A stretch of 64,000 bases of DNA from an uncultured candidatus Porisulfidus sp. (GTDB lineage: Bacteria; Pseudomonadota; Gammaproteobacteria; Poriferisulfidales; Oxydemutatoraceae), in assembly GCA_965215125.1 (NCBI GenBank), contig OZ244052.1:2112001-2176000 (forward strand), read 5' to 3'. Position numbers and translations under genes: made by a program. The notes under the pieces are model-generated. The model searched no databases and was not told where the DNA came from. It saw only the letters and a list, made by a program, of their open reading frames with translations. Positions 1-33,399 of this stretch are shown in pieces. The first letter of the stretch is position 1; each line of letters opens with the position of its first letter.

Positions 1-3000
1 CGTGGCGGCAGGGGCTTTGCCGACCTTAAAGCACCCACTGCGCCCGCTACGAATGCATCCGAAGTCTATTACCGATGGAGTACCGACGATTGGGATTTCG
101 GCACCAACACCGAATACCCGGTACTCGAGCCCTCTGTCCGTATAGAGACTATAGCTGTCAACGGCTACACATTGGTTCCCGCATTTAATCCGGATGCGAG
201 TAATTACTATGTAGTGGTAGGCGAGGATCCAAGCACGATTAGCATGAATGTTGCGGCAAGCGATGCCGATACCGAATTCACCGTTTCAAAAATCGACGAC
301 AATAGTTCGGTGACGATAACCGGTAGCAATGACGACATACCGATCAACCTCAACGCCGCCCCCGCCACGACCGTGCTGAGCGTTGCCAATACCTATACGG
401 TGAGAATCATTCGCAGTCTCAACGCGCAGATGACGATCAATGTGCCGAGTAAAGGAGTGGAAGAGGGTCAAAACATTCGCTTAAGTGTCGATAACAACAT
501 CGAAAATCTTGTTCCCTTAATTTATACATGGAAGCAAATCTCCCCGAACAGCCCGTTATTGATGGGAGGTATAGATACCGGCATCACCGTAGCGCAACCG
601 GAATTTAACATCGAGATACCCGGTAATTTCGTGCCGTCGGGACAAATCGCGCATGAACTACTACTGAGTGTAACGATAAGCGATGGATTCGGCAATACCG
701 CCGTAGCATCCGAAAAGCTGGCTGTTATTAAGCTAAACAACGGCACTGCCGACAGCTTACCCCGTTTAGGGTTTATAGCAGATACCTCGATATTGCAATC
801 ACCCGATGCCTTACAAATCATCGCCGCAGATCCGGACGGCGAAGCACTAAGCGATGCCGCTCAAAATCTTTTGTATCAATGGCAATTCAACGAAACGGGA
901 ATCAGCGACTGGACCGACATAGACGACGCAAACGGTGCTGTTTTAGATATCGGCAAGCACGATGCACCGCATGCCCGTTATCGCCTGCGTATAAATTACC
1001 GAGACGGGCAGGGCTACGGTGATAGGCTGATATCGGCACCGACGATACCGATCGTCGATAAAGACCGCGACGGCTTGATAGAGATTTACTATTTGGAAGA
1101 CTTGAACGCAATCCGCTTTCAGGTAAACGGTAGCGGTTATAGAGCGAGTGCCGAGGATAAAAAAATAACCGGCGGCTGCCCCGATGCCGGCTGTATCGGC
1201 TACGAATTGGCACTAGACTTGGATTTTGAAGACGACAACAGCTATCGCAACCTCGCAAACAAAGCCGGATGGACGGTGTCCGACTTCAGCAATATACTCG
1301 ATAGAGGCTGGACGAACATATATCAAGGTACCATCGGATTCCCAAGCATCTTTGAAGGCAACGGCCACACCCTCTACAATCTACAAATGAATGTTACCGG
1401 CGGAACTACCGGTGTAAGTTTATTTGCTAATAATTCAGGTGTGATACGCAATTTCGGCATAGAAGATCTAAAGATAGGAGGTTTGGGAACAGCTCCCAGT
1501 ATTGCCGGTTTATCGGGGGATAATACCGGGAAGATTATTAATTGCTATGTACGAGGCGAAATCAACACCGGAAATGTTAATGTATTGGGTGGTCTTTCCG
1601 GAGGTAACACGGGGGGCGGAGAGATTATTAACAGCCATGCATCGCTGAATATTGTCTCTTCCGGGAATCATCGTTCTATATTAGGACGCGGTATCTTGGT
1701 CGGATATGCAGAAAGAAGTCGTATTATTAACAGCTATGCGACCGGCAAGCTCACCATAACCCGTCATACGGGTACCGGCGGCCTGGTCGGGACGGCTTTT
1801 AATAATTCGGAGATTATCAACAGTTATGCGATTGTGGATATTGTTTCAACCGCCGAAGTAACCGATAGTATAGGAGCATTAGTCGGAAGATTAAGAGGCA
1901 ATAACAACAAAATTATCAATAGCTATGCGATGGGTTCCGTCACATATATCGGTAATCTTGCGACCAATATCGGCGGTCTCGTCGGTTTCGTGGAAGGTAA
2001 TGGCACTATTCGCAACAGCTATTCGGTTGCCGAGGTCGTAACGAATTCAAGGTCTGCCACTACCGGAGGATTGATCGGTAGAAATAATTCCAATATGCCG
2101 ATCGTATCGAGCTATTGGGACACCATGACGAGCGGGCAGGCCGGCGGGCAGCCGGTGAACCGATTCGGCAGAGGCAAACCAACGACCGAGATGCAGCGAG
2201 GTAGCGCACAAAGTACCGATGCCAACGGAGTCTACCACAACTGGAACAATGAGAATTGGGATTTCGGTACCGCCCGGCAATACCCGGTTCTCAAATATAT
2301 CCCGCACCCCGCCCTAAGTGGCGAACCAACTTGCGATGCACCGGGATTGCCCGACTGCGGCACGCTCATCTCGCCGGCACTTCGCTACGGTTTAGAAAAC
2401 TTAGAAGCGGATATCGGAACTTTGAATCCCCCGTTCATTGCCGGAGGCTATTATTTAGGTGATGTTGAGATAGCCGATTTATCTACTCGGAGGATCCGCT
2501 TGATTGCCACCACCGTTGAAGACGATGCCGTCGTCAATATCTATGCTGCAGACGGTCAAACGCTATTGCAATCCGGTTTGCTCGGCGGTGAGCCCAGCAT
2601 GGCGTTTACATTCGCCGATGCCGAACCGACACGCCGTTTCGTGTTGGAAGTCAAAGGTAGCCGAACGATACGCCAGTCCGTTGCACTCACCCGTGTTGTT
2701 GCTCCGACACCGCCCGAGGTTTCCGGAGTAAAGGGATGTTCGGAATTAGCCGATTTCGCACAAGTCAGCTATTTGGAAGAGCTCAATGAGGTAAGAAATA
2801 ACCTAAGAGGCAAATATTGCTTGACCAGAAATTTGGATTTTCAAGACGATGCGAGCTATCTCGATCTGGACAACCGACAGACATGGACGGTGGATAATTT
2901 CGGCAACTCCGGCGATATCGGCTGGCAACCGATAGGGGGTGCTTTCAATGGCGTCTTCGACGGCAACGGTTATACGATCCGCAATCTGCAAATCAACCGG

Positions 3001-9000: not shown

Positions 9001-12000
9001 CTGGGCGACACGAGGATTATTAACAGCTTTGCGCATGGCACAATCGTCGGCAGCATTGACGATGCGGGCGGTCTATTTGGGAGTACTTTTTTAAGTTCTA
9101 GAGTAAAAACAATCCAAAATAGCTATGCAACCGTTGATATTAGAGCGAATAACAAAGCCGGGGGACTCGTAGGATTATCCGCTGCGAATGACTCAATCGT
9201 CAATAGCTATGCGACCGGTTCGGTGCATGCCGATACGAATGTGGGAGGTGGTTTAGTCGGTTCCATAGAAGGGGACACATTCTTTAACAATGTGGTTGAT
9301 AAGAGCTATGCGATATCCGGAGTGACGGGTGGCAGCAACCTCGGTGGTTTGATCGGTGCCACTAGCGGCACCCGTGTCACCGTTGACAACAGCTATTGGG
9401 ATATCCAAACCAACAGACTGGATACGAGTGCCGGCGGCACCGGCAGAACTACGACGGAACTGCAATCGCCGATCACCAATAGCGGTATTTATTCCAGCTG
9501 GAGTACCGCCGACTGGGATTTCGGCAATGCTAGGCAATACCCGATCCTCAAATACACCCAAAATTCCGAGACCGGCGATGCTAGAGCTTGCGATGGCGAC
9601 GGTCTGCCGAACTGTGGCAATCCGATCTCACCACAAATTCGCAATGGTCTGAAAGATTTAACTCTAGCGGGTGGTGTCGAGTTATCCCCACCTTTCGGTA
9701 TTAAACATAGTAGTCTAATCGGTGGTTATTCGGGTAGCGTCAATGCCAACCCTATCCGCATAATCCCGACGGCGATGCAAGACAATGCGAACATCAACAT
9801 CTATATAGACACCGTCAACGACAAGCGTAGGCCAGACCAAAGAATTATCAAGGATGTTTTCGGTTTCAGCGATGCGATTAGTGCGCCGATCACCTTGCGC
9901 GAAGACGGCATCAACCGCATCGTCTTGGAAATCGTCGGCACCGAGACGGTGTACTATCCGCTCTATATACGCTACATAGGCGACAGTATGTCGGCGACGG
10001 ACCGCAACGGAGACGGTTTCATCGATATCTATTATTTGGAGCATCTCGCTGAGATAAGAAATAATTTAGGCGGTACATATAAGTTAATGCGCGATCTAGA
10101 TTTTGAGGATCCGGACAGCTACCTTGCCGGTGCAATCAATCGCCAATGGGTTGTGCGAGACTTCGGTAATACAACCGATACCGGTTGGACACCGATAGGC
10201 AGTCATACCGGACGATTTAACGGCACCTTTGACGGCAACGGTTTTGTAATATCCAATTTGCAGATCAATAGGGACGATACGAATGATCAGGGTCTGTTCG
10301 GCAATATAGATAGCAACGCTGTCGTAAGCGACCTCGGTTTGAGCGACCTAACTATAGAGGGTGATCAGTACCTCGGTGCCTTCGGCGGTACAAACCGAGG
10401 CATCATCATCGGGAGCCATGCGACCGGCAGTGTCAAAGGAAACCAATATGTCGGCGGTTTGGTAGGCGATAATCTTGAGGCAGCTCGGATTATCAACAGC
10501 TATGCTGCCGTTAATGTCGGGGGCGAATCGACTGTCGGAGGATTGGTTGCTCGTAGTGATGCTCTCATCATCAACAGTTATGCGACCGGCACCGTCTCGG
10601 GTGAGCGATCGCTCGGTGGCTTGGTCGGCTTACAACGAAATGGTCAAATCGGAAATAGTTATGCAACCGGTGATGTGAGTACCGGCGTAGTCAACGAAGG
10701 CAATAATACATTTGAATTCGTAGGCGGTTTGGTAGGTCTAAAGGATGTCAACGGCGAAATTAGAGACAGTTATGCCACCGGGTCGGTCGGCGGTGTAAAT
10801 ACAGCTAGAGTGGGCGGCCTCGCCGGTAGATCAGCCGGCAACACAGCAAGAATTAGCAATAGTTATGCGACCGGTAGCGTGGTTGGCAGCGGAGGATCAC
10901 AAGGTGGTTTAGTCGGAGAAGGGGCGTCAATAACTGTCCGCGACGGCTATTGGAATAACCAAACCAGTGGGTTGGATGCCAGTGCCGCCGGCACCGGAAA
11001 AACTACGATGGAACTGCAATTGCCGACCATGGCTACCGGTATTTATGCGAATTGGAGCATCGATAACTGGGATTTCGGTAGCAGTATAGAATACCCGATA
11101 CTCAAATACATCCGAAATCCCGACAGCAACGGTCGGCGGATTTGCAACGGCAACGGTCTGCCGAACTGCGGTGATCTAATCGGAGGACAAATCCGCGACG
11201 GCCGATTACCGATAGATCGCGACGCAAACGGGTTCACCGAAATCTATTATCTGGATAACCTTCATGCCATCGGTACTAGCACCTCCACTTTAGCGGGTCG
11301 ATACGAATTGATGCGCGACCTCAATTTTGACGATCCGAGCAGCTACTTTGCAGGTGAAATAAACCGCGACTGGGTCGTAGTAGACTTCGCTAATACGACC
11401 GATACCGGTTGGCTGCCGATAGGCGGCATAACAACCCCGTTCACCGGCGAGTTTAACGGCAACGGCTACACAATCGAGCGTCTACAGATCAACCGAAGCG
11501 GTCAAAATAATCAAGGCTTATTCGGTGTGATCGACAGTAGCGGTGTCGTACGCAATCTGGGTCTGTCGAATTTGAGGGTAGCAGCCGGTTCGCGGATCGG
11601 TGGTATAGCCGGCACTCTTCGCGGTAAAATTGTCAACAGTTATGCGACCGGAGCGGTGTCCGGTGTCGGTGATGTCGGTGGTATCGTCGGGGTCGCTGCC
11701 GGCACCGGCGTTATCGTCAATAGCCGTAGCGGTATTCGGTTGTCGGCAACCGGAATAAATGCCGGTGGCATGCTCGGTAGATGCAACAACGGTTGCACGA
11801 TATTGAACAGTTTTGCGGTCGGTTCGGTTGCGGGGATCGGTACGAACGAGGACAACATCGGAGGCTTTGTCGGTAGGGCGGAAGCTACATCTAACATCGG
11901 CAACAACTATGCGTGGGTCGATGTGAGTGGTGGGCCGTTTCAAACTTTATTAAAAGTTAATGCCAACGGCGGATTTTTTGGTGCGTTATCCATTAACAAC

Positions 12001-15000
12001 AATAATGTATCGGTAAATGCCAATTATTCAATCGGGCCGTCGAGCCTCGCTTATGCCGGTCGTCAAAGGAGTATAGTAGCAACTATTAATATTGCCAGAG
12101 CGAATTATTATAATTCAGATACTGTTGAACCAAATTCAGCACCTTCGCCGCAAGTATTCGCAGGCAGAACGATGCGACAACTGCGTACACCGACCGAAGC
12201 CGGTAGAAACTCGGGTCAGATTTATTACCGTTGGAGTCCTGCCGATTGGGATTTCGGCACTGAGATGCAATACCCGCTTCTCAAATATACCGCAGCGACC
12301 GATGTGCTGGGTCGCTCGGCGTGTCGCAGTGCCGGAGATGCCCCATCGCGCCTGCCGATGTGCGGCACCCTGATTGCCCCCAAAACACGTTACGGCTTAA
12401 GCGCACTCACCGCTCGCTATGCACAACTCACCACACCCTTCGACGACGCATTATCGGATATCGGCGGTGCTTATTACACCACGGTGCTCAACGATGTGCC
12501 GCGCATGCGACTGGTTGCCACGACACGCGAAGCAACCGCCACCTATAGCGTCTATATCGGCGGTGTCCGAACACCCGAGAATATGGATATTGAAAACGGT
12601 GCTATCAGTGGCGAGATTGTGCTGGCCGCCGACGGCACCACCGAAGTCGTCATTGTGGTTCACGGCACTCGCACGGTGCGCTATACGCTCTATTTGGATT
12701 ACCGGTTTGAGACATCGATAGATGCCGACAACGATGGCTTGGTAGACCTTCATTATCTGGAAGATGTGGCAATGGTACATCTCAATTACCAAAGAGAGAT
12801 AGGTTATAGAAGAGGAGGTGAACTCAACACTTTAGGCTGTCCGAATGGTGTATGCCGTGGCTACGAGTTGATGCGAGACTTGGATTTCAACGACCCTGCC
12901 AGCTACCGAGACCCGGCCCGAAACGGTGTTATGCGTCGCTGGACCGGGCAAGGCTGGGATTCGCCTAACTTATCTAATGCCGTATTCAAAGGCAACGGCT
13001 ATGAGATATCCAATCTGAAAGTGACCGCCAATATAAGCAGAAACGATGCATTTTTCCATCTAGCCTTCGGCACCGATATAGACGGCTTGGGTTTAGTGAA
13101 TGTGGATATCAGTGCCGATAATGCCGCCGACCCACATAGCGTAGAGCTGGCGGGACTAGTTGGCACATTCGTCAACCAAATAGACAACCGCGGCACAATC
13201 CGCAATAGTTATGTGATCGGCGATATAAGAGGAGCAGGGTCGGCAAATATATCCGGTCTTACATATCGAGCAGTGGGGTATTCGGTAAGTAACAGCTACT
13301 TTATCGGCACGCTGAGATTACTGGGAAATAACAGGCGAGATAATGTTATCGTTAGTGCAAATGGACTGGTAACTTCTAGTGCAGGTTTCTCTTCCGATTC
13401 ACTCGGAAACAGCCGTGCGATCGGAAGAATCGAAACCGCGATCGAAAATGAACTTATAGATACGGCGATGTTAGGAGTGGACTCTACACGAAGTTTGAAC
13501 ATCGGCAATAGCTATGCCTCTATGCTGATGACTAGAGCGGGCGTGGCGCAAGGAAACCTGAGTAATAGCCTAGCGCGTATAACGAACAGCTATTTTGATC
13601 GCGACATTGCGAGGGTTGATGTGCCGGCAAGTCGAGCGAGCAGCGGTGCCGAGTTGCGGGCGACGACGATGACCGGTATTTTTGCCGATTGGGATGCCGA
13701 CGATTGGGATTTCGGTGGTGCCGGTCAATCTCCGGTGATCAAGTACAATTCCGATGAATGTCAACGCGCACGACACGACAACCCGTTGTGCGGCAAGATA
13801 CTCCCGCATCAGGGGAGCTTGATGGAGCGTTTTGAGCTACTCGGCAATGCCGGTCTCAGCCGACCTTTTGATTTTGCGATATTCAACGATTATGAGATTG
13901 TGGTCGGTGCCGACCAACAAGGTCTACGCTTTGTTGCCGAGGCTTTTGCTCCGAATGCCGATATTGTGGTCTATAAAACGACCACCGATGCCGAGGTGGT
14001 CAGAGTAAAGAGCGGTGCTGATACACCGCCGATTGCATTGAACACCGTCGGTGATACGCTATTGGATGTGGTCGTAGAAGAGGGCGAGGATCGCAAATCG
14101 TTCCGCTACCGCTTCAATGTTTCGCGCCTGAATGAGCGGATAGACCTCGCCGCAGTAGACGGCGACGACGGTTTCATAGATATTGCCACCCCCGAACAGT
14201 TGAATGCGATGCGTCATAGTTTGAACGGTAGTTTTTATAGGGCAAGCAGAAATGGTTCCCGAGTTTATTGCCGTATCGGCTGCCGCGGTTATGAGTTGAC
14301 AGCCGATATAGACTTGGCAGGAATAGACTGGCAACCTATCGGTCGCAATGGCGCGCGCTTCAATACGCATTTCAAAGGCAACGGCTATGTGATATCCAAC
14401 CTGACTATACACGACCCCGCTTTTGACGAGATAGGCATGTTTGCTTATTTGGGTGTGGATGCGAGGCTAGAAGATATCCACCTCAGAGATGCCTCTATCC
14501 GTAGTAGTAGATTTAGAAATACAATCGCTACTTTAGCAGTACGCAACTACGGTACTATATTCAATGGTCGTACCGAAAATGCCGATATTCTTGTCGGAGG
14601 TAATTTTGGTGGTGGTGCTTTGGTTTATGAAAACTTCGGTCGCATTATCAACAGCGGTGCAGTAGGCGGTATGATAAATCATCGATCCGGTGCTGCCGGC
14701 TTGGTACGTCTCAATCGCGGTACTATTAAAGATAGTTTTGCAACAATCGCCATTAACAATTTGTCGAACCGAGTTGGTTCCGGTTTAGTCTCAAGAAATT
14801 TTTCCGGCGGAGAAATAGACAATAGTTATGCACAGAGTATCATTTCCGGTAACAACGTCACTATAGCAGGTTTAGTAGATAATAACGAAGGCCTAATTAA
14901 TAATAGCTACGCAATCAATGGCCCTTTAGTGCGCACCGCATCGGGTAGCCTCGAAGTCGAAAACAGTTATTGGGATCGAGATACCGCCGCACCCGGAGCC

Positions 15001-30000: not shown

Positions 30001-32673
30001 ACCTATAGCCTGCTAATAACCCGAGAGAGTAGTTCGGATACCGGATTGCGTTCGTTGACAATCGGCGGTGGTGCATTGCAACTAGACGACGCAACAACCG
30101 AATATACTGCGACCATAGCCGAGAATGTGGAGAATACCATCATGAGTGCGAGTGCGAGACATTCATCGGCAACACTAATCCTCCGTGAGCAAGGGGATAC
30201 TACTCGGGTTGACAGTAGATCACGCAGTGTAAGCAGACTAATCAACATAGCCGATACCGGGGATCGTAGGACTTTTGAAATCATCGTGACTGCCCAAAAC
30301 CGACGCACGACCCGAGCATATACCGTGCGAGTGAACCGCAATCCGAGTACCGATGTGAGCTTGAATATTGCTGTGGGCGGTACTCCTGCGCTTAGGCGGA
30401 CCGACGGAACTTATACTGCGAGTATAGGTGAGCGTACGACGAATACTACTGTGGTCTTAACCGCCGGTAACAGATTTGCCATGGTCGAAGTTATGGGAGA
30501 CGGCATTAGCTCCGAGAGCGACATCGGGCGTTTAAGCAAGCAAGTTGCTATAGACAACCCCGGAGAAACGAGCGAATTACGGATTACCGTGACTCCACAA
30601 GCCGCCGGTATCGAAGCGCAGGATTATACTTTGACGGTGCGTCGCGACCGGAGTACCGATGCGAGTTTATCCCGATTGGAATTGCTCCCGCAACCGCCGA
30701 GTTCGGGTAATCCGGTAATTTTTGATTCGGTAACCGATATGCTCGAACACGAATTTTCCGGTACTGTGAGCGGTGTCAAAATAAAACCGATCACCCATCC
30801 TTTTGCAAATAAAGTAGAGATGTTTAGACCGGGGAGTTCCGCCGCCGAAGTCATAGCCGCAGGTGCGGAGAGTTCGGAAATCGCTTTAGCACAAGGCGAG
30901 ACGACGACGATTACCATCGTGGTGACCGCACAAAACGAAACGACAACTAGACCCTATATCGTGCTATTAAGCCGTGTAAATTCAAATACCGAATTAGACG
31001 GTATTAGCGTGCTTCCCGGCAGATTAGACCGACCTTTTAGATCCGATTTGAGGAGTTATAGTGTAGAGGGTCTTAGAAGAACGCTTACACTGACGGTCAG
31101 TGCTAAGACCGATCAAACGGTCGTAGCTAACGACACAGTTCTAACCAGTAACATAAGCCGAAACTTTAACTTGGATTACGGAGCAAACACGATTAGGATT
31201 GTAGTGACCGCAGCCGACGGAGTGACAACCGGGGGCTATACCGTGACCGCAATTCGTCCGGTCATCTTGGATCGTTTAGTACTGAGGGGGCTTAAGTCCG
31301 CCAATGGAACCCCCGTTGATTATACTTTTGACTCCTTTATAAGAAACTATACGGTGACGGTTGCGAACGATAGTTCGGAACTCACCGTGATACCCAACTC
31401 GGACGATGACGATATCGTGTACACAATTTCCGAAGCAGGCAGAGAACTGACACAAACTAACGGCAGGGTTTCAATTCCATTCAATGTGAGACAGACTAAA
31501 GTCATTAGTATAGTATTGACGGCACCGAACGGAACGACAAATACCTATGTGGTGCGTGCGACCCGTGAAATAAGTAACAATGCCAACTTGGATGTTTTGA
31601 GGATATTACCGGACGGCGGCACGGCGACGAGCTTCGACAATCTGGCAACAAGCACGAGTTATGTGTATCGCATTGCTAATCCGATAGTCGGCGACAAAAT
31701 AACCGAGCTTCGTTTGGAAGCGCAAGTGGAGCATAGTAGTGCGACGATTATAAGCTATACCATAGACGGTCTTGCGGTAGACGGCGTATCATTGGGTACG
31801 CGTAGCATAAACGATACTATTTCCGTAGACGAAGGCGAAACGAAGGAAGGCAAAATCAAAGTGCTTGCCCAAGACGCAATGACGAGCAAGACCTATACGG
31901 TGACGATTATGCGGCAACCGAGCCGAGATACGCGGTTGAGTATGCTGGAAGTGTTGTCCGAAGCGGTGGCGGGATTTAGTTTCGATCCTGCGGTGGCTAA
32001 TCAACCAACCCGCTATTCTGTAGAACTGCCTAATGATATAGCGAATACAACCCTAACTGCGGTTGCCGATAATGTGCATGCAACGCTGACAATTAGAGAG
32101 GGGAGCAATGCCCCGAGTCCCGCTAATCGTCGGGCGGATATACCGATTACGATTGGCGAAGGAATGAATAAAGTATTCACTATCGTGGTGACCGCACAGG
32201 ATACCGAAGTGCCGATGGCAACTTATACCGTGACCGTATCGCGTGCCTCGGCAATGGATAGAACGACCTTAGGGTTTGCTCTCGCAATGAGCAATATTAC
32301 CCTTGAGACAGACCCCGACGACGACTCCGGAACCGTCTATATCGGCACATTGACGAATATTAATATTGAAAGCATCATAGCATCTGCATCGTCAACTGCT
32401 ACCGGTGTCGGTATTCAAAGTATCTGGTTAGGCGATGATCGTACAAATAACTATGTCAAAGACGATAATCCGGTGACCCTAGTCGCCGGTGCAGATCGTA
32501 TTGCTATTTCCGACGGTATCCCGTTGGAGCGGGGAGGTGTTCAAATTGTCATCGTAGTGAGACGTGCCGATAATACTGCCGACGGCTATACCGAGGCAAA
32601 TTATATTGCCAATGTACGAGGATCCGCATTACGCGTCCGCGTCAGAGTATTTCTGGAAGGCCCCCTGCAGTAG
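1..32673 (+). CDS. Giant repetitive surface/adhesin-like protein (>10,890 aa, 5'-truncated by the window): GLUG-motif beta-helix modules plus cadherin-like beta-sandwich and Ig-like domains
   Basis: Frame 1 is open from base 1 (RGGRGFADLKAPTAPATNASEVYYRWSTDDWDFGTNTEYPVL...), so the TTG at 172 is not the true start. It contains very many GGLVG / I.NSYA.G.V repeats, repeated FDGNGYTI.NL and WDFG..QYP.L motifs, and C-terminal L..L....F....Y...I.VTA.DG..YT..V.R repeats. Confidence 0.9.
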   Translation, partial: RGGRGFADLKAPTAPATNASEVYYRWSTDDWDFGTNTEYPVLEPSVRIETIAVNGYTLVPAFNPDASNYYVVVGEDPSTISMNVAASDADTEFTVSKIDDNSSVTITGSNDDIPINLNAAPATTVLSVANTYTVRIIRSLNAQMTINVPSKGVEEGQNIRLSVDNNIENLVPLIYTWKQISPNSPLLMGGIDTGITVAQPEFNIEIPGNFVPSGQIAHELLLSVTISDGFGNTAVASEKLAVIKLNNGTADSLPRLGFIADTSILQSPDALQIIAADPDGEALSDAAQNLLYQWQFNETGISDWTDIDDANGAVLDIGKHDAPHARYRLRINYRDGQGYGDRLISAPTIPIVDKDRDGLIEIYYLEDLNAIRFQVNGSGYRASAEDKKITGGCPDAGCIGYELALDLDFEDDNSYRNLANKAGWTVSDFSNILDRGWTNIYQGTIGFPSIFEGNGHTLYNLQMNVTGGTTGVSLFANNSGVIRNFGIEDLKIGGLGTAPSIAGLSGDNTGKIINCYVRGEINTGNVNVLGGLSGGNTGGGEIINSHASLNIVSSGNHRSILGRGILVGYAERSRIINSYATGKLTITRHTGTGGLVGTAFNNSEIINSYAIVDIVSTAEVTDSIGALVGRLRGNNNKIINSYAMGSVTYIGNLATNIGGLVGFVEGNGTIRNSYSVAEVVTNSRSATTGGLIGRNNSNMPIVSSYWDTMTSGQAGGQPVNRFGRGKPTTEMQRGSAQSTDANGVYHNWNNENWDFGTARQYPVLKYIPHPALSGEPTCDAPGLPDCGTLISPALRYGLENLEADIGTLNPPFIAGGYYLGDVEIADLSTRRIRLIATTVEDDAVVNIYAADGQTLLQSGLLGGEPSMAFTFADAEPTRRFVLEVKGSRTIRQSVALTRVVAPTPPEVSGVKGCSELADFAQVSYLEELNEVRNNLRGKYCLTRNLDFQDDASYLDLDNRQTWTVDNFGNSGDIGWQPIGGAFNGVFDGNGYTIRNLQINRDNISRVGLFNAIGTGGTVRNLILGNIRVEAHRTAVLWAGGLAGDNNGTILNSGIIGGKVEGDGSASGQPNFIGGLVGRNNGAGVNIGDIYNSFVVDTVVGVITGTNPDSHNVGGLVGRNINGGEVHNSYAEVVARGYCHVGGLVGNQFTSNRGNADTISTIRNSYADVTLTALSGTCRIGEARAKLVGFNNASDIINSYARGTPVGTGLIGGRVGTFDITRSYWDSGPSNLGNLSRSSAQLRSPIGPNATSPELYTNWSTADWDFGTDTQYPILKHASGRNNNACGSTVTPACGTLISPQQRYGLSSLVLAGADTLSPAFDPNLLKYSATVTNDDDGIIRLTPTIKGTDAVFRVYIDDDKERPRFDLKNGDSSNDITLVHGNNRIIVEVDPRVSGVEAFRYTLDLYSLRYGVEDLYSSRIKDSRSSFIEIDSLEDLHAIRDNLGGSYRLTRDLDFRNDASYDNPTMNKAAWTVDDFADSADTGWQPIGDTFTGTFDGNGYTISNLQMNRAADNQGLFASIGSTGVVRNLGLIGVNINGGSSNSIGSLVGNNRGTIIASYAAGKVSGSLRVGGLVGNHIEGLIANSYAAVNVSGSQFIGGLVGRNTARILNSYAIGKVSGSSNFHGLVGVRSVGSSIINSASGAGSIGATFSYIQNSVVGSTLTCGAIGLPNCEDPIAPQLRHGLRNLTLETGRMSPAFRVNLPQYVGAVNAEDNAIRLIPTARDPDADITIYLITDQGRTQIGNIIGSGDTAAPILIMHDSVARVVIEVDPSTADAPVVQYLLHLRLLPPTDIENLEDLYAIRDNPDGIYRLARHLDFLDAASYRSGVVGTAWTVDDFDNSADTGWLPIGDTFNGIFDGNGYTIRNLQINRDNTDRVGLFGTVGADGTIKNLILRDIRVEAHRTGELYAGGLVGDNNGMILNSGVIGAQVEGAGSVSGESNLIGGLVGRNDGSIANIGDIYNSFVVDAEVGVIEGTAPDSHSVGGLVGGNIHGGEIHNSHTEGTVNGHCHLGGLVGNQFTADRSDADRISTIENSYANVTLTQPSGTCRITFARGKLIGLNDRSDIANSYARGLPGNVGLIGLSMNGGTLSDSYWDAGTSSQGGISRTSTQLQSPTDARGIYGNWSADNWYFGTATEYPTLKYTQNPDDRGSPACDGAGLPACGDRIVPRLRYVSLRDLTVVDGELFPVFDAADYSYSGIVASSDAVIRLSPVANDLAAEIKIYLVDRTDRMQLGRVIGSGDTSDPIRLNRYNSNHIIVEIRPSASGVPAVEYPLYLQYRRASEIESLEDLYAIRNNLNGAYRLSKNLDFDDDASYRFPEFKANWTVDNYNDAADLGWIPIGDETKPFTGSFDGNGYTISNLQINNNDESIYKGLFGVVGRSATVRNLGLLDAEIEVIQVREGEDLFVNPGVGVGTLTGKNDGTVIDSYAHGVIRGDVGLGGLVGFNSRSGEILNSYAVCTITARGVDIGGLVGYSEGRIGNSYAAGIITGSSFRVGGLLGVGLSASVLYNSYADSFISSIGSVGGLIGFDEEGGARDVYASGIVSGIRDDTGGLVGVSEAGRYINSYSISEVAGGVEDGTNISLEGGLFSRTNRATIENSYFADSSLPIVVDSPEVNLRNINSSVFTPAELRAATAQSTNASDVYYRWSDDNWDFGDTTQYPVLRYAPNVGGRTTACDGDGLPNCGDVIPRRALSALRIVDGKGRFDSFVFDPRYRFHSGVIESSTDMTQLVAVAASTDARITFVSFDTSGNETGRSTPMRSGREGVLSADISLSETEATHVAIEVITPGSVDRYHLSLRYRHIPVDQDDNFYTKIDTLDDLNAIRNNLDGSYLLTRHLDFNDDASYRNPSFKNSWTVADFADNADFGWIPIGSTNNGFTGTFDGNGYTISGLQINRDNSSNQGLFAFIGDNGIVRDLGLLDVKIDAGNTVGALAANSRGTIIGSFVVGEITARGIYAGGLVGLAQSATDYIINSYAVVNIEAVGSGAKSGYGGLVGVSLGDTRIINSFAHGTIVGSIDDAGGLFGSTFLSSRVKTIQNSYATVDIRANNKAGGLVGLSAANDSIVNSYATGSVHADTNVGGGLVGSIEGDTFFNNVVDKSYAISGVTGGSNLGGLIGATSGTRVTVDNSYWDIQTNRLDTSAGGTGRTTTELQSPITNSGIYSSWSTADWDFGNARQYPILKYTQNSETGDARACDGDGLPNCGNPISPQIRNGLKDLTLAGGVELSPPFGIKHSSLIGGYSGSVNANPIRIIPTAMQDNANINIYIDTVNDKRRPDQRIIKDVFGFSDAISAPITLREDGINRIVLEIVGTETVYYPLYIRYIGDSMSATDRNGDGFIDIYYLEHLAEIRNNLGGTYKLMRDLDFEDPDSYLAGAINRQWVVRDFGNTTDTGWTPIGSHTGRFNGTFDGNGFVISNLQINRDDTNDQGLFGNIDSNAVVSDLGLSDLTIEGDQYLGAFGGTNRGIIIGSHATGSVKGNQYVGGLVGDNLEAARIINSYAAVNVGGESTVGGLVARSDALIINSYATGTVSGERSLGGLVGLQRNGQIGNSYATGDVSTGVVNEGNNTFEFVGGLVGLKDVNGEIRDSYATGSVGGVNTARVGGLAGRSAGNTARISNSYATGSVVGSGGSQGGLVGEGASITVRDGYWNNQTSGLDASAAGTGKTTMELQLPTMATGIYANWSIDNWDFGSSIEYPILKYIRNPDSNGRRICNGNGLPNCGDLIGGQIRDGRLPIDRDANGFTEIYYLDNLHAIGTSTSTLAGRYELMRDLNFDDPSSYFAGEINRDWVVVDFANTTDTGWLPIGGITTPFTGEFNGNGYTIERLQINRSGQNNQGLFGVIDSSGVVRNLGLSNLRVAAGSRIGGIAGTLRGKIVNSYATGAVSGVGDVGGIVGVAAGTGVIVNSRSGIRLSATGINAGGMLGRCNNGCTILNSFAVGSVAGIGTNEDNIGGFVGRAEATSNIGNNYAWVDVSGGPFQTLLKVNANGGFFGALSINNNNVSVNANYSIGPSSLAYAGRQRSIVATINIARANYYNSDTVEPNSAPSPQVFAGRTMRQLRTPTEAGRNSGQIYYRWSPADWDFGTEMQYPLLKYTAATDVLGRSACRSAGDAPSRLPMCGTLIAPKTRYGLSALTARYAQLTTPFDDALSDIGGAYYTTVLNDVPRMRLVATTREATATYSVYIGGVRTPENMDIENGAISGEIVLAADGTTEVVIVVHGTRTVRYTLYLDYRFETSIDADNDGLVDLHYLEDVAMVHLNYQREIGYRRGGELNTLGCPNGVCRGYELMRDLDFNDPASYRDPARNGVMRRWTGQGWDSPNLSNAVFKGNGYEISNLKVTANISRNDAFFHLAFGTDIDGLGLVNVDISADNAADPHSVELAGLVGTFVNQIDNRGTIRNSYVIGDIRGAGSANISGLTYRAVGYSVSNSYFIGTLRLLGNNRRDNVIVSANGLVTSSAGFSSDSLGNSRAIGRIETAIENELIDTAMLGVDSTRSLNIGNSYASMLMTRAGVAQGNLSNSLARITNSYFDRDIARVDVPASRASSGAELRATTMTGIFADWDADDWDFGGAGQSPVIKYNSDECQRARHDNPLCGKILPHQGSLMERFELLGNAGLSRPFDFAIFNDYEIVVGADQQGLRFVAEAFAPNADIVVYKTTTDAEVVRVKSGADTPPIALNTVGDTLLDVVVEEGEDRKSFRYRFNVSRLNERIDLAAVDGDDGFIDIATPEQLNAMRHSLNGSFYRASRNGSRVYCRIGCRGYELTADIDLAGIDWQPIGRNGARFNTHFKGNGYVISNLTIHDPAFDEIGMFAYLGVDARLEDIHLRDASIRSSRFRNTIATLAVRNYGTIFNGRTENADILVGGNFGGGALVYENFGRIINSGAVGGMINHRSGAAGLVRLNRGTIKDSFATIAINNLSNRVGSGLVSRNFSGGEIDNSYAQSIISGNNVTIAGLVDNNEGLINNSYAINGPLVRTASGSLEVENSYWDRDTAAPGATSAGGAARTTIELQLADREKNSTDNVYNTWDTEQWHFGNADQYPTVLYHGTGLCTQPTEAQLQSCDTLVSAGLSQADRALVCRDRLLRNRADPPYCGALVPYQNRRGLIGLELPTDTRLVPEFSPEVESYNLMTSGTITVFHTTPTAYYHTDTVTFKVGNTEQIVADNTRTEEITVNRADVDAVTLSVRSAADTTRTYTINLRSPDYQDDIDIRLSALDNLKLFPDFNKNTADYHLIAYSDTDRVRLTTTATDPLGFVPSIEITADNGLSPVVLEGVGVAEVVLNPDAVTEITVVVSGQQRYRFEYRIVVERLPFRSRLDGSNLIDKDGNGLIEIDYLEQLDAMRYGLDGRGYSYAVETTTTLIKINSGCPAGGCRGYELTKDLSFLDDASYIDAQRAMPLWTEGTGWQPIGDFSNPFTAEFIADGYTISGLRINRRNTDNIGLFGVVSNAKIRGIGVLNAELRGASNVGILAGSSRESSNIINSYATGTVRAVNNGGGLIGVYQGNIVHSHANVSVEVNATAGGLVGELLPGNIRKSHVSGAVYSFSGIAGGLVGEVENATISDSYATATINASRSGGLVGSVTSHSPEAVGVRINNSYAIGVNRSAQSAGLVLNVLNVPIEVNYSYWDVDTSGVRNGLGGTSRTTVELQSTTTEIYNNWRSEIWDFGNNMQYPRLKYTTATDTLGSPPICRSASDISSRLPVCDELLPDQYIGLTDLVFSSEVLQLIPAFNSNIYDYTLVLKADETGFHTTPTYVGTVYRLSVDNNDLGNLASGTASSRIPVTASGSTRIELGKGGVVYTFTALRHPYLRINDMDVDDDGLIEIRNRTELDAMRYQPDGSGYRSPTVNEKISVGCPPVTGCVGYELAASIDLSGADWDPVGRINPATLDCSDGNSRCFAAIFDGNRALGYEISGLSIATPNRDNVGLFAHLSADAEILNLTLSDVSVAGWGGVGALAGYNAGIVRNVQVAGEVDGESDVGGVIGYNVGRLSSVRADPIRVVGNNIEGGYGELIGGLVGRSLGGSIVDSGATGEVIGRAFVGGLVGESDGLIEGSFADAVVIDTGASDGESYAIGGLVGYNTDKIYNSYAGGSVSGSSSVGGLVGINYQSFNNEGRIVNSYAIGSVLGINAIGGLVGRNEHNGKVSASYALGEVSGDVRVGGLVGLNFGTLVNTYATGATNSKQKVGGLVGDNLNTSDRSIVNSYAIGRVSDVSESGGLVGFNLRYSDIRSIRHSYWNLETAGVIDSRLGIGQTTVALLTPTAATGIYANWDTNLWDFGTSEHYPQLRYGRGDDSDNPACGGGGQPTCGSVRSYGLSDLQVLGSVLFSPRFTTPRLRYRIAAYVELSGSLRLIPHATDPDSMITIAYNGNEINVADGAVSDPIVLNPGVDDAIIVSVRNTGGTIEYILEIDYSGFDSDRILADSDGDGLIEITTLDDLYAVRYGLDGSAYIHILPDGELLPIAEGCPTTPTVGCKGYELTRDLDFRDAASYRSGVVNTKWADNWNPIGDDDNQFNAVFDGNGYYLRNLSLRGTRTKDAIGLFHTLGRNAEVKNLRLRGVNIYDVIGRAFNSRRAEKQGSLAGENRGRIYDVGVSDITALVGSSYNRRALKQSRFGGLVGVNRGGEISHSFAQVYIYSFSPHSGIFGDIVGGLVGRNDRGAKIKNSYATGAISGHCRLGGLVGEHVSANRNTAENISTIENSYARVNTNKVLNVKCIDEVFNVEGFVQGFGGLVGFMDQADIVNSYAAARQSGGVLGLIGRVRGTASAANSYWDNILNDKQSASTGVGETTAFGGQTTAVLQGTTTTIGIYASWNSDDWDFGTDEQYPTLKAADGSIAMQILDDSLVRNVEVRNAVIAKINDITRDFNHSRNSNRYAIYVDSTRLPLAITFITTPTVPGLETTLYCGDVRCPLVGIGDTLMLGHSDIQEITLAAGAGNRVMRYYFDIVREDLTLDNVTTINLKEGDTFTVSGDYAGNSDINWSQIAGPTIGIADANSLNLKLIPQVNLIANDSEHSDVRFRLAVSVDDKNGNPQVYLGREISARINKVNNGPITGDITLALNNDKITVTENLSDIDGSLTNAVRQFQRRSIGGNWADTNLTGSGLEYTAPREAIDYQYRLIGTYIDGQGYRDPVVSNTIIVPAISISLLSDTDNDSVANDDDIDDDNDGLIEIRYLEDLNAIRYQLDGSGYRASASADLNTRGCPNTGCFGYELTRNLNFTAAGAYRSGVVNGAWTVSDGQFTTTAEGWQPIGGAFNATFNGNGYFIARMSISRSSVGTRSNVGLFSEIGANGKIENLVIDFPAIKGLAGVKNVGSITGLLRRGGVIRNSDVYGTRDAGSSLRVIRTDRGSVGGLVGVNEGYILNSGARINVSVQDSDSTISNNGNVTVGGLVGRNRNGGRIHNSFYARGEIVGHCIAGGLVGSQETAGGSGDAISEIKNSYVFHDSRVLMRNASCTTRYLGGLVGRHLNGKSIIADSYAGGRAYALSLTPGGGSQCNGQGSFGRIANVQAQTDIRIAGLLNYTPGTDRVPTNSYWRREPYACVQSVPVFGAFVPIDTLAVTQADIGNRRSENNLRNPTAPCLSSSCTTYEDWNADDWDFGTDAQYALLRYTEGTNSADPACDFNDRTPLPRCGAFLSGQPNRNLVSPRLPTLSVIPPQAVIGYTLNGVSSVLNTLNTLTLNEGDTLSLDAGNSFSSDTAALNYRWKQTSGPELLSGTNAKSMIRFNVRNDLLPMATDRGRAIIRLEVLKRDNPGLSAFEYITINIIKTNRIGSGSVYWVDTSLIAPTEIIDADGTPITDIGYQWQRRMSGSLVDIAEETEAIYRVPDNAVNGEYRLKLSYTDGQGYADTIFISAPTYSPTRTVDTDADGLIDIFYIEQLNAIRYQLGGTSYKASMNATPNTKGCPSGSCKGYELLRDLDFDEPDSYSNTASNVVERWNDWDPIGTVVNRHQGFCSGSNQCFTGIFEGNEYTISNIRIRDGAFSTGVGFFAAVSGTAEIRRVRMAKVDVLGGFAVGTLVGGFAGGKIIDSHVLSGLVRANREDGGCLVGEVRGTNVEISNSSARCDLIGSVRLGGLVGMGNPTISNSFATGTMKLEFNNERGEEIGYGGLIGVLTQSGSIENSSSTMSITTEAARQNSSGFEHGLGGLAGITKTNTSIKNSYATGDMTARRPNFNNIRVGGLVGISVSDISGSYATGNVNRFGNDVINIMGGLVGENKGAISDSYATGNVRGNDKIGGLVGVNEGTVNNSYAIGDVTGGLSIGGLAGEMSGNISNSHATGKISINAGNNITLRAGGLIGDIRTGTVSNSYASGILSTSASNGAGLGGLVGYNNDPGTINNSYAAVSFRAAGANRGGLVGSNVSGNGISNSYSISEGLSDIRGRGLVNFNIGRSQRSYWDIDRSGQFSDGSGGTLGFSSEILKLMSVPGVNRHPYINWSTEHWDSGTTEQYPAIRYHDSTCSTNTPSANCRNILPRQRLGLRDLRFTQIGGRRQLQISPSFNNAVIKNDFDREAIENYTVLVDSKTSGIEISATASDPAGMITINGSSMSVGSANYVLVPDFPDAMTLNISVSQPYEITGKENLDVEYHLTLGTFPEINTITRNAAENEHAQSLSDSVPIREGHFITLTGRFIDLDGDDLRYEWTVDETQVSLLDRAALNGVVAGGSGNAALSFYLREDFIAADRSSETVRASLTVSDSDGSTVVREQSFVVVKYDNGTIDGISTPTRIGLIYTAPALDRVQLAEDPDGAGNPNDIRYRWQQQLDGSWSDVVNGSLGSYTIGGAIADYYRVVLNYSDGQGYRKDIVSAPVPASPEFVREVIPTSEGGSLEVFLDAAGLTPEFQRTREEYDVPSDTDSVDIVVISRSDAVYVNNMRIQGRVTTADLDYGDNKIIVELRGEDSSTRSYTIYRAYDVSLHRWGVAWQGVSPQTLDFLGTDLEPDPPVRISNDVDSITVTARVNELIDITIRSAGSTVGSITTSTQADELVAQAKISDLALGEHSIEFLLTSPDRRSTASHIVKVWRRYSSRLKNLSVVGMQPSIFNPERLEYFVSIPNHWEALNLNFETNERATLFVQGASISGGSTVATNLRIGRNTVPIRVTAPREQDTIYTIIVMRRYNLDLRSLSLTDLQMTPVALSPAFASTRHTYTAVVAAETSRVTVTFATDLELRSSVKAPGPVTVNEKTIQNNDPDDRIEKTTSIPLSFGENTIVIETSALGQRQATTLTVTRLRSSNAELRSLQLRDTENTDLLAGVFATDTLSYDIDVANDNNFIALILGPQDDNVSGITWNGVPLSLSGLKTTGLVTSPSRRLAIGENEIKLKIIAHNEMSSQTYTLRIDRAPSSNARLDSFQITPFSEGVPNPPVSPQNFNAETLSYTLPKQENEINCITVTPVAVDDEATLEITKNGDIPETDYFAGKNNRESSGCIDLNIGENTIVIQVTASDKTTVRPYTISIARKASSNTDLSAPPTVSGTTATRVIGTDNYTAMLDRNTTSFSVSVATAHPNATVLIRTTDNDEAGPSRTASIDSIPISVAEPVQEITIIVTAQDGTPKEYTLTVRLILNMDASLERITVAGTPAVRQADGTYTATVGDNVANVSVTAVARDSLATVEIKEVGTTPTSGTRSATKRVSLAETGDSKTIEIEVTAQDVRIVENYPLTITRAESSNDCLEALAILNSADNSRAAGRTLGSCNDTKQSFNIANSVARILIQATAENNRANITVRVPGDTAGEQVSSGENSTKAVAVPEGGTTTITAVVTAQNGATSRTYTVAVKRAASSDTDLKNLQVLANNVNQLTTFSSEKETHDVDVSNAITRATVIIETHSQAKIKLNIDGAEDIATGTGMISTEFELKGTGTTNRIRVRIVITPQDESTTRGYTVFVTRADPDSTNADLGTIGFEVDRDQDGTYTPLPVTVTAPEEEGSTTYSALIRGIAGLEVQNIIRIRVSPRAFDGAATVSINGGTAVSAPSLNLMLDAALDQEEEAISIKVIAENPTTSRTYSLLITRESSSDTGLRSLTIGGGALQLDDATTEYTATIAENVENTIMSASARHSSATLILREQGDTTRVDSRSRSVSRLINIADTGDRRTFEIIVTAQNRRTTRAYTVRVNRNPSTDVSLNIAVGGTPALRRTDGTYTASIGERTTNTTVVLTAGNRFAMVEVMGDGISSESDIGRLSKQVAIDNPGETSELRITVTPQAAGIEAQDYTLTVRRDRSTDASLSRLELLPQPPSSGNPVIFDSVTDMLEHEFSGTVSGVKIKPITHPFANKVEMFRPGSSAAEVIAAGAESSEIALAQGETTTITIVVTAQNETTTRPYIVLLSRVNSNTELDGISVLPGRLDRPFRSDLRSYSVEGLRRTLTLTVSAKTDQTVVANDTVLTSNISRNFNLDYGANTIRIVVTAADGVTTGGYTVTAIRPVILDRLVLRGLKSANGTPVDYTFDSFIRNYTVTVANDSSELTVIPNSDDDDIVYTISEAGRELTQTNGRVSIPFNVRQTKVISIVLTAPNGTTNTYVVRATREISNNANLDVLRILPDGGTATSFDNLATSTSYVYRIANPIVGDKITELRLEAQVEHSSATIISYTIDGLAVDGVSLGTRSINDTISVDEGETKEGKIKVLAQDAMTSKTYTVTIMRQPSRDTRLSMLEVLSEAVAGFSFDPAVANQPTRYSVELPNDIANTTLTAVADNVHATLTIREGSNAPSPANRRADIPITIGEGMNKVFTIVVTAQDTEVPMATYTVTVSRASAMDRTTLGFALAMSNITLETDPDDDSGTVYIGTLTNINIESIIASASSTATGVGIQSIWLGDDRTNNYVKDDNPVTLVAGADRIAISDGIPLERGGVQIVIVVRRADNTADGYTEANYIANVRGSALRVRVRVFLEGPLQ
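1057..25400 (+). repeat. About 15 dispersed GLUG beta-helix modules of ~350-600 aa inside the giant ORF
   Basis: Module heads (I..LE.L.A.R...Y.L..DLDF) begin near 1057, 2760, 4285, 5375, 6850, 8420, 10000, 11215, 12720, 14160, 15975, 17450, 19270, 21490 and 23590. W[DYH][FS]G..[QE]YP-like caps lie near 91, 2257, 3787, 6388, 7960, 9514, 11068, 12247, 13705, 15103, 16996, 18829, 20455, 22792 and 25324. Confidence 0.85.
26470..32628 (+). repeat. About 19 tandem ~100-aa cadherin-like beta-sandwich repeats (stalk region of the giant ORF)
   Basis: A terminal motif I.VTA.[DN]...YT..V.R..S.[ND] recurs about every 300 bp from ~26700 to ~32610 (19 counted by eye). The pattern resembles the Pfam Cadherin-like beta-sandwich family. 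Confidence 0.75.
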
Positions 32674-32697
32674 CACGAGTATAGTGCCGGTTAATTC

Positions 32698-32880
32698 CTC
32701 TCCTTGTAGGGGCAGAATAGAGCCGCCGATTGAGCCAGTAGGTCAATCGGCAATTTTGATGTCCGCCCTTAGGGTGGCAGGCGCATAGAACCACCACTTG
32801 TTGCAGTAGCATAAGTGGTGTCCCGTTGTGCAGAACCTTGATACATATATACAAAATGTAAAGCCTTTCCACAGGGTGGT
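32698..32880 (+). repeat. Composite palindromic intergenic repeat, copy 1 (REP/BIME- or MITE-like)
   Basis: Block A is CTCCTTGTAGGGGCAGAATAG (32700-32720). Block B is the hairpin GCCGATTGA-N9-TCAATCGGC (32725-32751). Block C (32789-32880) contains the hairpin CACCACTT..AAGTGGTG. All three blocks recur reverse-complemented at 41798-41946. Confidence 0.8.
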
Positions 32881-32896: not shown

Positions 32897-32955
32897 TCGC
32901 AACATTGCGTCGTTTATAACGCACCGATTAATAGTAGATAATACGGAGGAGATTA

Positions 32956-33363
32956 ATGACAACCGAAAATGATATAGTCAAAAGATATTTTGACGCTTGG
33001 GATCGGCGCGATGTAGATGCCATTCTAGAAACTTTTGCCGAAGGCGGCACTTACTGCGATCCGGCAACCGAGAAAGAGATAACAGGGCAAGAAATCGGCG
33101 AATACGCAAAATCTTTATTCGATGCTTTTCCCGACATGTCGGTAGAATTGATTAGCAGTGTTGAAGCGAGCAACGGTGTGATTGCAGCCCCGTGGCTGAT
33201 ATTCGGTACCAACGACGGTCCTATAATGGCTAATCCACCCACCGGCAAGCGTGTGGTAATTCAAGGTTGCGATTTTATAAAAGCCGAAGGCGGTTTGTTG
33301 ACCACCATAGTCGGCGTTTGGGATGTCAAAGACCTTTCTGCACAACTGGGTTTATCCGGCTGA
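32956..33363 (+). CDS. SnoaL-like / NTF2-fold ester cyclase family protein
   Basis: 135 aa with the pattern IVKRYFDAWDRRDVDAI...AFPD...W..GT..GP...PPTGKRV...G.DF typical of SnoaL-like proteins; strong SD. Confidence 0.85.
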   Translation: MTTENDIVKRYFDAWDRRDVDAILETFAEGGTYCDPATEKEITGQEIGEYAKSLFDAFPDMSVELISSVEASNGVIAAPWLIFGTNDGPIMANPPTGKRVVIQGCDFIKAEGGLLTTIVGVWDVKDLSAQLGLSG

Positions 33364-33399
33364 TTAAATAGCACCGAACTAGGCGGCTTCGCTGTCGTA

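Follow-up and report, generated by a model that had tools for sequence, protein, structure and literature searches.

One open reading frame runs from the first base to position 32673 of the 64,000-nucleotide window analysed here (the window being the whole stretch, positions 2,112,001-2,176,000 of contig OZ244052.1 in assembly GCA_965215125.1 of an uncultured Candidatus Porisulfidus sp.), and it raises the question of how a bacterial protein of megadalton size leaves the cell and what holds it once it has done so. A sequence-only reading of the window had described the product as a very long adhesin or surface protein with no recognisable export or anchoring domain. The second part of that description did not hold: 2.2 kb upstream of the window the protein has a Sec-type signal-like N-terminus, and it ends in a conserved C-terminal tag for which a candidate receptor gene is found elsewhere in the genome. 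We hypothesise that this tag is the first strand of a docking domain that has been split, and that the rest of the domain is supplied by a small adaptor protein, which is secreted separately; taken as a whole, this is the reading that we favour, as probable rather than settled.

The last 15 residues of the giant, ALRVRVRVFLEGPLQ, are encoded at 32626-32670 of the window on the + strand, directly before the stop codon (32671-32673). Stop-free frames 1000 codons or longer number 51 and occupy 22.6% of the whole genome. Among frames of 1000 or more amino acids, 24 (with lengths of 1,493 to 15,111 when counted from the initial ATG) carry the ending [RK][VL]F[LP]EG..[QR]. The tails of these 24 giants follow the consensus ..[IL]R[IV]R.[KR]VFLEGPLQ or a close variant of it, whatever domain precedes, and at the other end of the protein a crude hydrophobicity rule finds a signal-like N-terminus in 21 of the 24, mostly ending in A-x-A/Q. 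Among the 24,613 six-frame segments 40 or more amino acids long, the strict form of the tag motif occurs 22 times, on 21 occasions exactly at the C-terminus and once four residues from it. The DNA 3' of the stops is unrelated and the codons of the tag vary between copies, which indicates that the tag is conserved at the protein level. It is amphipathic, with three arginines on alternate positions, an arrangement that is absent from the fused forms read (see below).

The exact ending VFLEGPLQ-stop was found in 5 of 61 related genomes, with no match for the reversed control, and a looser pattern in 9 of the 61, again with none for its control. These nine genomes include all 5 of the genus, with 15-45 copies each, a sister-genus genome (G006) with 220 copies, two of a third genus with 6 and 2 copies, and one from another family with a single unverified match. 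When one genome of each of 185,579 species was searched, 55 of the 56 tag stretches lay in four records titled 'Ca. Porisulfidus sp.' or 'Ca. Oxydemutatoraceae bacterium', which fits the earlier suggestion of a host-associated organism; the 56th has stop codons upstream and looks like chance. Metagenome contigs gave no match to the Q-type pattern. Six matches to the R-type pattern in such contigs were rejected as chance-like, because three have stops just upstream and three end in TGG instead of a stop and have no RxR strand. As far as these sequence searches can tell, matches outside this bacterial family are chance-like only. Four stretches of the sister-genus genome were read (L085, L086, L087 and L088; for example L085:5319-13776), and in these the tagged genes mostly form tandem arrays encoding proteins of 300-900 amino acids, several of which have clear signal-like N-termini and which end in LRLRLFLEGPLR or LRLRIFLEGPLR.

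The proposed partners of the tag are three paralogous small secreted proteins of 276, 329 and 287 amino acids (genes at L090:854-1684, L091:512-1501 and L092:593-1456, the one for 276 amino acids being at genome 1544854-1545684), each encoded directly upstream of a giant gene, with one of the three overlapping the stop of the preceding giant. They have signal peptides of their own and share the invariant segments QDPYC, DWVL.ELR, ARKPA.LL.NG, NCP and RH.NH.D, and in this genus the adaptors have an acidic pI of 4.05-4.35. Sequence comparison finds the FLEG strand in none of the three. A profile built from them has matches in 17 of the 19 family genomes.

In one family genome that is negative for the tail (G005), this profile has 47 matches, nearly all within open frames of 1,272 to 17,496 amino acids. 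A giant of 9,047 amino acids in that genome ends ...SAGVFLEGAYRVANDDMGTFLNQALPRMQPYN...VVDWVLLELRVV...YLLLQHRNHLSV...GDVNADG..., and this single chain combines FLEG strand, QPY loop and DWVLLELR core (...GVFLEGAYRV...QPYN...VVDWVLLELR...). Searched against 1.84 billion representatives, the profile retrieves 6,410 proteins with E values no higher than 0.001, and in the best 150 of these the domain is mostly C-terminal, in proteins of all sizes. All six fused relatives that were read open the domain with an [LI]K[AIV]FLEGPF-like strand, and all four stand-alone relatives that were read are without it, starting after the signal peptide at the loop before DPYC. None of the six fused relatives has a Pfam model over the domain, and the nearest clusters in the ESM Atlas are hypothetical; of the few relatives that have a record, more belong to Bacteroidota than to any other phylum. 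The family can be summarised as 'FLEGP...DWVLVELR...RHRNH...QVP', of about 220 amino acids, of which the giant holds the first strand alone, the rest being on separate genes. Both split and fused forms exist, and the tag appears to correspond to the first strand of a ~220-amino-acid C-terminal beta-sandwich plus dockerin-like domain that is whole in relatives and split here. We also note that the extreme C-terminus of the docking domain is conserved, as ..[ST].Q[VLI]P and at most one further residue, in the adaptors and in the fused relatives P0046-P0074.

A complex was modelled from adaptor residues 34-276 (11-row alignment) and the last 130 residues of the giant (8-row alignment). The ipSAE was 0.86, 0.87 and 0.88 in three runs, compared with 0.00 for the best of three controls; the runs share at least 65% of their contacts, with a partner pLDDT of 68-72. 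When the tool was calibrated, 116 of 157 solved complexes and 2 of 215 mismatched pairs attained this ipSAE mark, counts that apply only roughly here, the alignments being self-made. On the giant fragment the interface consists of residues 116-130 alone, that is the tag, which contacts the adaptor strands DWVLLEL, NGYV, VVVRH and YTYDF and lies between two strands of the adaptor sheet. The model shows the tag to be a fitting strand 1, by its likeness to the fused fold, and is not proof that the chains meet in the cell; binding between tag and adaptor is thus a prediction.

For a distant relative, the fused domain was modelled as well (27-row alignment; mean pLDDT 77.4, pTM 0.71), giving strand 1, then a well-defined sandwich (pLDDT >90) and then a poorly defined dockerin-like end. 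Its top Foldseek rows are the X-module-dockerin (XDoc) dyad of the Clostridium thermocellum cellulosome (PDB 3kcp, 4fl4, 2b59 and 5g5d), a weak match (E 5.8e-3) that VIA-align places at ranks 2 and 3 (Z 5.3 and 5.1). Both have a beta-sandwich and a dockerin-like, calcium-binding C-terminal end on large extracellular proteins, but the XDoc dyad is not split, and in the present genome no cohesin was found. From the models, the resemblance to XDoc may serve as a lead and not as evidence of membership.

Three other kinds of system invite comparison. Donor-strand complementation or exchange is known from chaperone-usher and type V pili, where, as is predicted here, an Ig-like sandwich without one strand receives it from another polypeptide. 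Unlike in those pili, however, no usher was found and no match to a pilin fold is significant (Z about 4); the donor would be a giant cargo and the acceptor a small dockerin-like adaptor, and relatives have a fused counterpart, which pilins lack. SpyTag/SpyCatcher-type pairs are engineered from a domain split into a small strand-bearing peptide and its larger counterpart, which re-associate, and the same split-domain logic would apply here, except that the pair would be natural and possibly non-covalent. Finally, the type IX secretion system (T9SS) C-terminal domain, PEP-CTERM (exosortase) and GlyGly-CTERM (rhombosortase) are C-terminal sorting tags common to dozens to hundreds of secreted proteins in Gram-negative lineages. 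The strand tag is likewise one C-terminal element on many otherwise unrelated secreted proteins of one lineage, but it has no transmembrane (TM) helix and no NCBIfam model, is 15 residues long, and seems to have its homologue in strand 1 of a domain, not in a peptidase signal.

We propose that the giant would be exported by the Sec pathway as a fibre-like adhesin, and we infer a surface location for it. It would keep only strand 1 of the docking domain, with the three small acidic secreted proteins carrying the remainder. After export, the tag would insert into the open sandwich of an adaptor, a strand complementation in trans, and the dockerin-like end of the adaptor would link the giant either with a surface partner or with further giants. 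In its most specific form, the hypothesis is that the docking domain was cut after its first strand in a lineage of sponge-associated Gammaproteobacteria, that the VFLEGPL[QR] tail serves as the tag in a natural 'tag and catcher' sorting system based on this split domain, and that one small secreted catcher with a dockerin-like end captures, once they are exported, any of the 24 giants, or of the 220 smaller secreted proteins of the sister genus; this we put forward tentatively, and it may well turn out otherwise.

A number of observations weigh against a split docking domain. The predictor tends to rebuild a domain from its pieces, so that the docking result shows likeness of strands only. 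No fold is claimed for the fused domain, which had no match in the PDB by Foldseek at E up to 0.001 and a best Z of 5.7 in a wide VIA-align search, below the 7-8 that is typical for models without a clear match. Dockerin_1 is found in only one of the three adaptors (23.2 bits, cut-off 22.9), Pfam and NCBIfam cover no part of the core, and there is no match in the genome to the cohesin family PF00963 that the dockerin-like end might bind; Pfam also finds no cohesin on the fused C-terminus of G005. Signal peptides were judged by eye and by the crude hydrophobicity rule. The numbers are lopsided, with 3 adaptors for 24 tagged giants here and one adaptor match for 220 tags in the sister genus, and no adaptor gene lies near the giant of the window, among the 25 open reading frames (ORFs) downstream. 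Stand-alone adaptor-like genes occur, moreover, in four family genomes (G010, G013, G012 and G015) where FLEG-type tail patterns matched nothing.

One possibility is that the tail is instead a secretion or sorting signal, and that the strand-less proteins are periplasmic chaperones or pilots, not surface anchors, each binding the tags of many successive clients and passing these on to an outer-membrane machine such as a type II secretin. This would suit the scarcity of adaptors relative to clients (3 to 24, and 1 to 220 in G006), the complex model fits it equally well, and a canonical Gsp system is present, just upstream of a giant ending in a TM helix plus RRRK, after which comes a gene that by eye is rhombosortase-like. 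However, the whole domain is fused to cargo in relatives, unlike a recycling chaperone; the secretins adjoining giant genes do not follow the distribution of the tag (all 19 family genomes have one of them, and 14 have the other, which the genome with 220 tags lacks); and nothing links an adaptor to a secretin. We therefore consider a chaperone or pilot role unlikely, if far from negligible. The tail could also be a functionless leftover, a stop having arisen after strand 1 in an ancestral giant and the truncated end having spread by recombination between paralogs, with the small proteins independent of it. Fused forms, which do exist, speak for this. A leftover is difficult to reconcile with a motif that is kept across three genera with differing codons, that in its strict form is exactly C-terminal in 21 of 22 cases and four residues off in the other, and that follows unrelated last domains; nor does it sit well with the 220 tagged genes of G006, mostly small in the stretches read, or with adaptors in which precisely the tag strand is missing and which possess signal peptides of their own. 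On these grounds we regard a leftover as distinctly improbable, and the split domain with its secreted adaptor remains the reading that we prefer.

As regards export, the true N-terminus of the giant, MKLSDNFLHIIIVSFMLFTGEAFS/QVG, is judged by eye to be Sec-type signal-peptide-like. It had been stated that the export route was not evident, and with this signal found upstream the statement no longer applies to the N-terminus; for the outer-membrane step it stands. Motif and composition searches agree with the reported absence of GGxGxD, LPxTG and a C-terminal TM helix. Specifically, GG.G.D has no match over the 11,630 residues, leaving no RTX nonamer; LPxTG is not found in the giant; and the last 60 residues contain no TM-helix-like stretch (no 18-residue segment has more than 12 that are hydrophobic or small). 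A sortase-, exosortase- or rhombosortase-type end, consisting of a motif, a TM helix and a basic cluster, is not present in the giant, and neither the T9SS models TIGR04183 and TIGR04131 nor any other NCBIfam sorting model matches the whole giant or its last 400 residues at E up to 0.1.

A classical type I (RTX/LapA-like) or type V (two-partner) adhesin, with its machinery elsewhere in the genome, would offer a different answer. The sequence-only reading had seen no type I secretion system (T1SS) or TpsB gene downstream, and there is none among the 25 ORFs on that side. The genome does have one TolC-family gene, at about 751 kb (two OEP matches in one 466-amino-acid frame). Against a type I or type V route stand the N-terminal Sec-type signal of the giant and its lack of the GGxGxD motif; the best match in the genome to TIGR01846, for an HlyB-type transporter, reaches 367 bits against a cut-off of 725.55; residues 1-375 (the first two tiles of the Pfam comparison) match no Pfam family, hence no TPS domain is seen; and BamA is the sole Omp85-family gene of the genome (PF01103). 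ShlB (PF03865) also has no match in the genome, in a search for which the control genomes likewise gave none. We regard such a route as very improbable.

Four secretins were identified in the genome, belonging to a canonical Gsp type II system, a type III system and two type-IV-pilus-like operons. The type II system, with GspC, D, A, B and E present, is the only plausible candidate that we see for passage of the giant across the outer membrane, and nothing ties it to the giant. The usher family PF00577 has no match in this 99%-complete genome, in a search whose control found it in E. coli; the PapD-type chaperone was not searched for. The two type-IV-pilus or type II secretion system (T2SS)-like operons (genome 179153-184310 and 441093-449366; L025 and L026) lie between or beside giant genes, contain a secretin, a T2SSE ATPase and PilN/PilP-like genes or pseudopilins, and are both flanked by Mu-F/PBECR2 phage-type genes. 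They were considered as machines specific to the tag and rejected on the distribution of their secretins across the family genomes given above.

Several further observations concern secretion genes and giants of another kind. Type III secretion genes at genome 1484422-1491054 (L027) include a CesT-type chaperone, the SctC secretin and SctD with an FHA domain. At genome 1505956-1519635 and 1831417-1837641 (L105 and L106) there are two giants that end in a TM helix and RRRK or RRIRKK, not in the strand tag. The first of these adjoins, on the 3' side, the Gsp type II genes and one adaptor gene, and is followed by a gene for 198 amino acids at 1520016-1520612 that looks rhombosortase-like by eye. 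Searched with Pfam, one of the two TM-tailed giants matches no family and the other only Glug, with no cohesin in either.

The sequence-only reading of a stop-free frame of more than 32.7 kb that is open at base 1 is borne out: in frame 1 of the + strand there is no stop over 1..32673 (10,890 codons), and the frame continues upstream in the whole genome, which is a single closed contig of 2,220,706 bp with a completeness of 99%. The first 57 codons in the window had been taken for the end of another module, and they do contain WSTDDWDFGTNTEYP. The protein was expected to be longer than what was visible, and upstream extension located its true start: the whole-genome frame starts 2,247 nucleotides 5' of the window, and translation from its first ATG, 2,219 nucleotides before window base 1, gives 11,630 amino acids (~1,234 kDa, or ~1.23 MDa; pI 4.8), the signal-peptide-like N-terminus lying outside the window. 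A tRNA-Leu gene on the opposite strand lies just 5' of the giant gene.

Mis-assembly of the giant frame is very unlikely. Repeats within the giant are diverged, with at most 73% identity over 71 amino acids and a median of 37% in a tile-against-tile comparison, and only 14 of 32,648 25-mers recur within the gene, so that there is little substrate for a mis-join. A whole-protein blastp of the giant against itself gave no off-diagonal rows, for which reason the tile comparison was used instead, and phmmer with one cadherin-like domain found no match in the whole giant at 1e-4 except the domain itself. Comparable frames exist in three other genomes of the genus, with 12,827 to 18,986 amino acids and ends that are 51-64% identical to that of the giant, and a whole-genome search showed that one of the same genus, of 13,383 amino acids, ends 2.3 kb from xseA in a convergent arrangement, as at the window giant; among eight loci from relatives, none had xseA within 1.5 kb of the tail. 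At least 94% of sampled words from window 20001-30000 are present in five public runs of two studies, and the assembled contigs of these runs contain identical pieces of the gene of up to 9,327 nucleotides. A 20-kb stretch compared with these contigs is spanned by no single record, and none of the public runs listed was an RNA run holding giant sequence.

It might still be argued that the 35-kb frame is a concatenation of several paralogous genes made during assembly, the genome being rich in paralogs. Over the last 1.3 kb (window 31377-32700), a stretch common to paralogous giants, contig depth in public runs is ~3x the level elsewhere in the gene, and the contigs mapping to it include variants with 10-19 differences; four odd joints were seen in single public-run contigs, each with 22-26 letters on the short side. 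Set against this are the single closed contig, the near absence of exact internal repeats, the frames with related ends in three further genomes of the genus (in one case with synteny at xseA), the identical contig pieces of up to 9.3 kb from two studies, and the presence of a signal peptide at one end of the frame and the family tag at the other, and we give a concatenation hardly any credence.

The architecture had been given as about 15 GLUG heads followed by a 19-domain stalk, which is essentially right, since Pfam gives 14 Glug clusters and 18 Cadherin-like stretches. When thirds of the giant were searched, Glug (PF07581) scored 143.4, 130.2 and 74 bits (cut-off 20.5), Cadherin-like (PF12733) scored 437.3 bits over 18 stretches in the last third, and Peptidase_M26_N scored 37.8 bits (cut-off 27.7) in the first. 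With 93 overlapping tiles of 250 amino acids, Pfam assigned Glug to 37, Cadherin-like to 26 and only other families (M26_N or PKD-like) to 3, with 28 matching none. The GLUG-rich part covers window 1..24900 on the + strand, the strand of every feature given here, with beta-sandwich spacers between 13 GLUG clusters and one further cluster upstream of the window. The first seven lie at about 1770-2400, 3325-3510, 4790-4860, 5940-6130, 7405-7470, 8975-9230 and 10440-11000, and the remaining six at about 11590-11660 (weak), 16650-16720, 17860-18540, 19950-20020, 22150-22220 and 24320-24850. A calcium-type motif, DxDxDG.I[ED], opens eight modules, and in the form DxDxDG-LIEI it precedes many of the GLUG clusters. 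A middle part without GLUG (11700..16600) has weak, scattered Cadherin-like matches at about 12440-12700, 13870-14130 and 15360-15900. From 25500 to 32250 there is an unbroken run of Cadherin-like beta-sandwiches, accounting for the 18 Pfam stretches, and this is followed by a last folded domain (32281..32625), which belongs to no Pfam family and shares 78% identity with the end of the paralog at genome 132358-177312, and then by the strand tag, delimited by the complex model and by conservation of the motif.

The description as a very long adhesin or surface protein is thus confirmed by Pfam in respect of its GLUG beta-helix modules and cadherin-like stalk, and the sequence supports a very long multi-module protein of the adhesin or surface-fibre type, with ~14 GLUG modules and ~19-20 cadherin-like domains. 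Like GLUG proteins such as the N-terminal region of streptococcal ZmpA/IgA1 protease (PF05342, NCBIfam NF046017), the giant passes for both Peptidase_M26_N and Glug, but no protease domain was found in it and its size is 11,630 amino acids. It also resembles the GLUG/Cadherin-like giant adhesins of bacteria, being long, repetitive, acidic, rich in calcium motifs and provided with a signal peptide, but differs from them in ending in a 15-residue strand tag, not in a cell-wall, membrane, RTX or T9SS anchor. By analogy, the giant may be seen as a new member of the known giant GLUG/cadherin-like adhesin kind, with a C-terminal end that can be likened to donor-strand complementation and not to the chaperone-usher pathway.

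The 25 ORFs 3' of the giant are housekeeping genes: xseA, guaBA, an ABC importer, fabI, ppiD, lon, clpX, and rpsB through bamA-skp-lpxD-fabZ-lpxA, the order from rpsB to lpxA being one that we take to be gammaproteobacterial. Between the giant gene and xseA, at window 32955-33370 on the + strand, an ORF of ~138 amino acids (MTTENDIVKRYFDAWDRR...) looks SnoaL-like by eye. Palindromic repeats such as GAACCGCCGATTGA.CC.GTAG.TCAATCGGC are found just 3' of the stops of several giant genes, including window 32674-32800. Elsewhere, at genome 225567-229406 on the + strand, there is a frame of 1,279 codons starting MGIKYRLGLDVGANSLGWSV..., which may be Cas9-like.

Giant adhesins are already known, and the size of this one is not in itself novel. 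A literature search by taxon names, protein kind and motif strings, judged by the titles listed, found no publication on these giants, the tag or the adaptor motifs. The present analysis defines a large C-terminal domain family with thousands of cluster representatives and no Pfam model. If the proposed mechanism holds, it would explain how the giants are anchored or coupled, and would provide a natural, small and possibly non-covalent tag-and-catcher pair. The tag would also add a new class to the protein-sorting signals of diderm bacteria. Frames 1000 or more codons long, of which tagged giants account for about half, take up over a fifth of this 2.2-Mb genome, so that surface display must be central to the lifestyle of the organism, and were the split-domain reading true, its cell surface would bear a modular and exchangeable coat.

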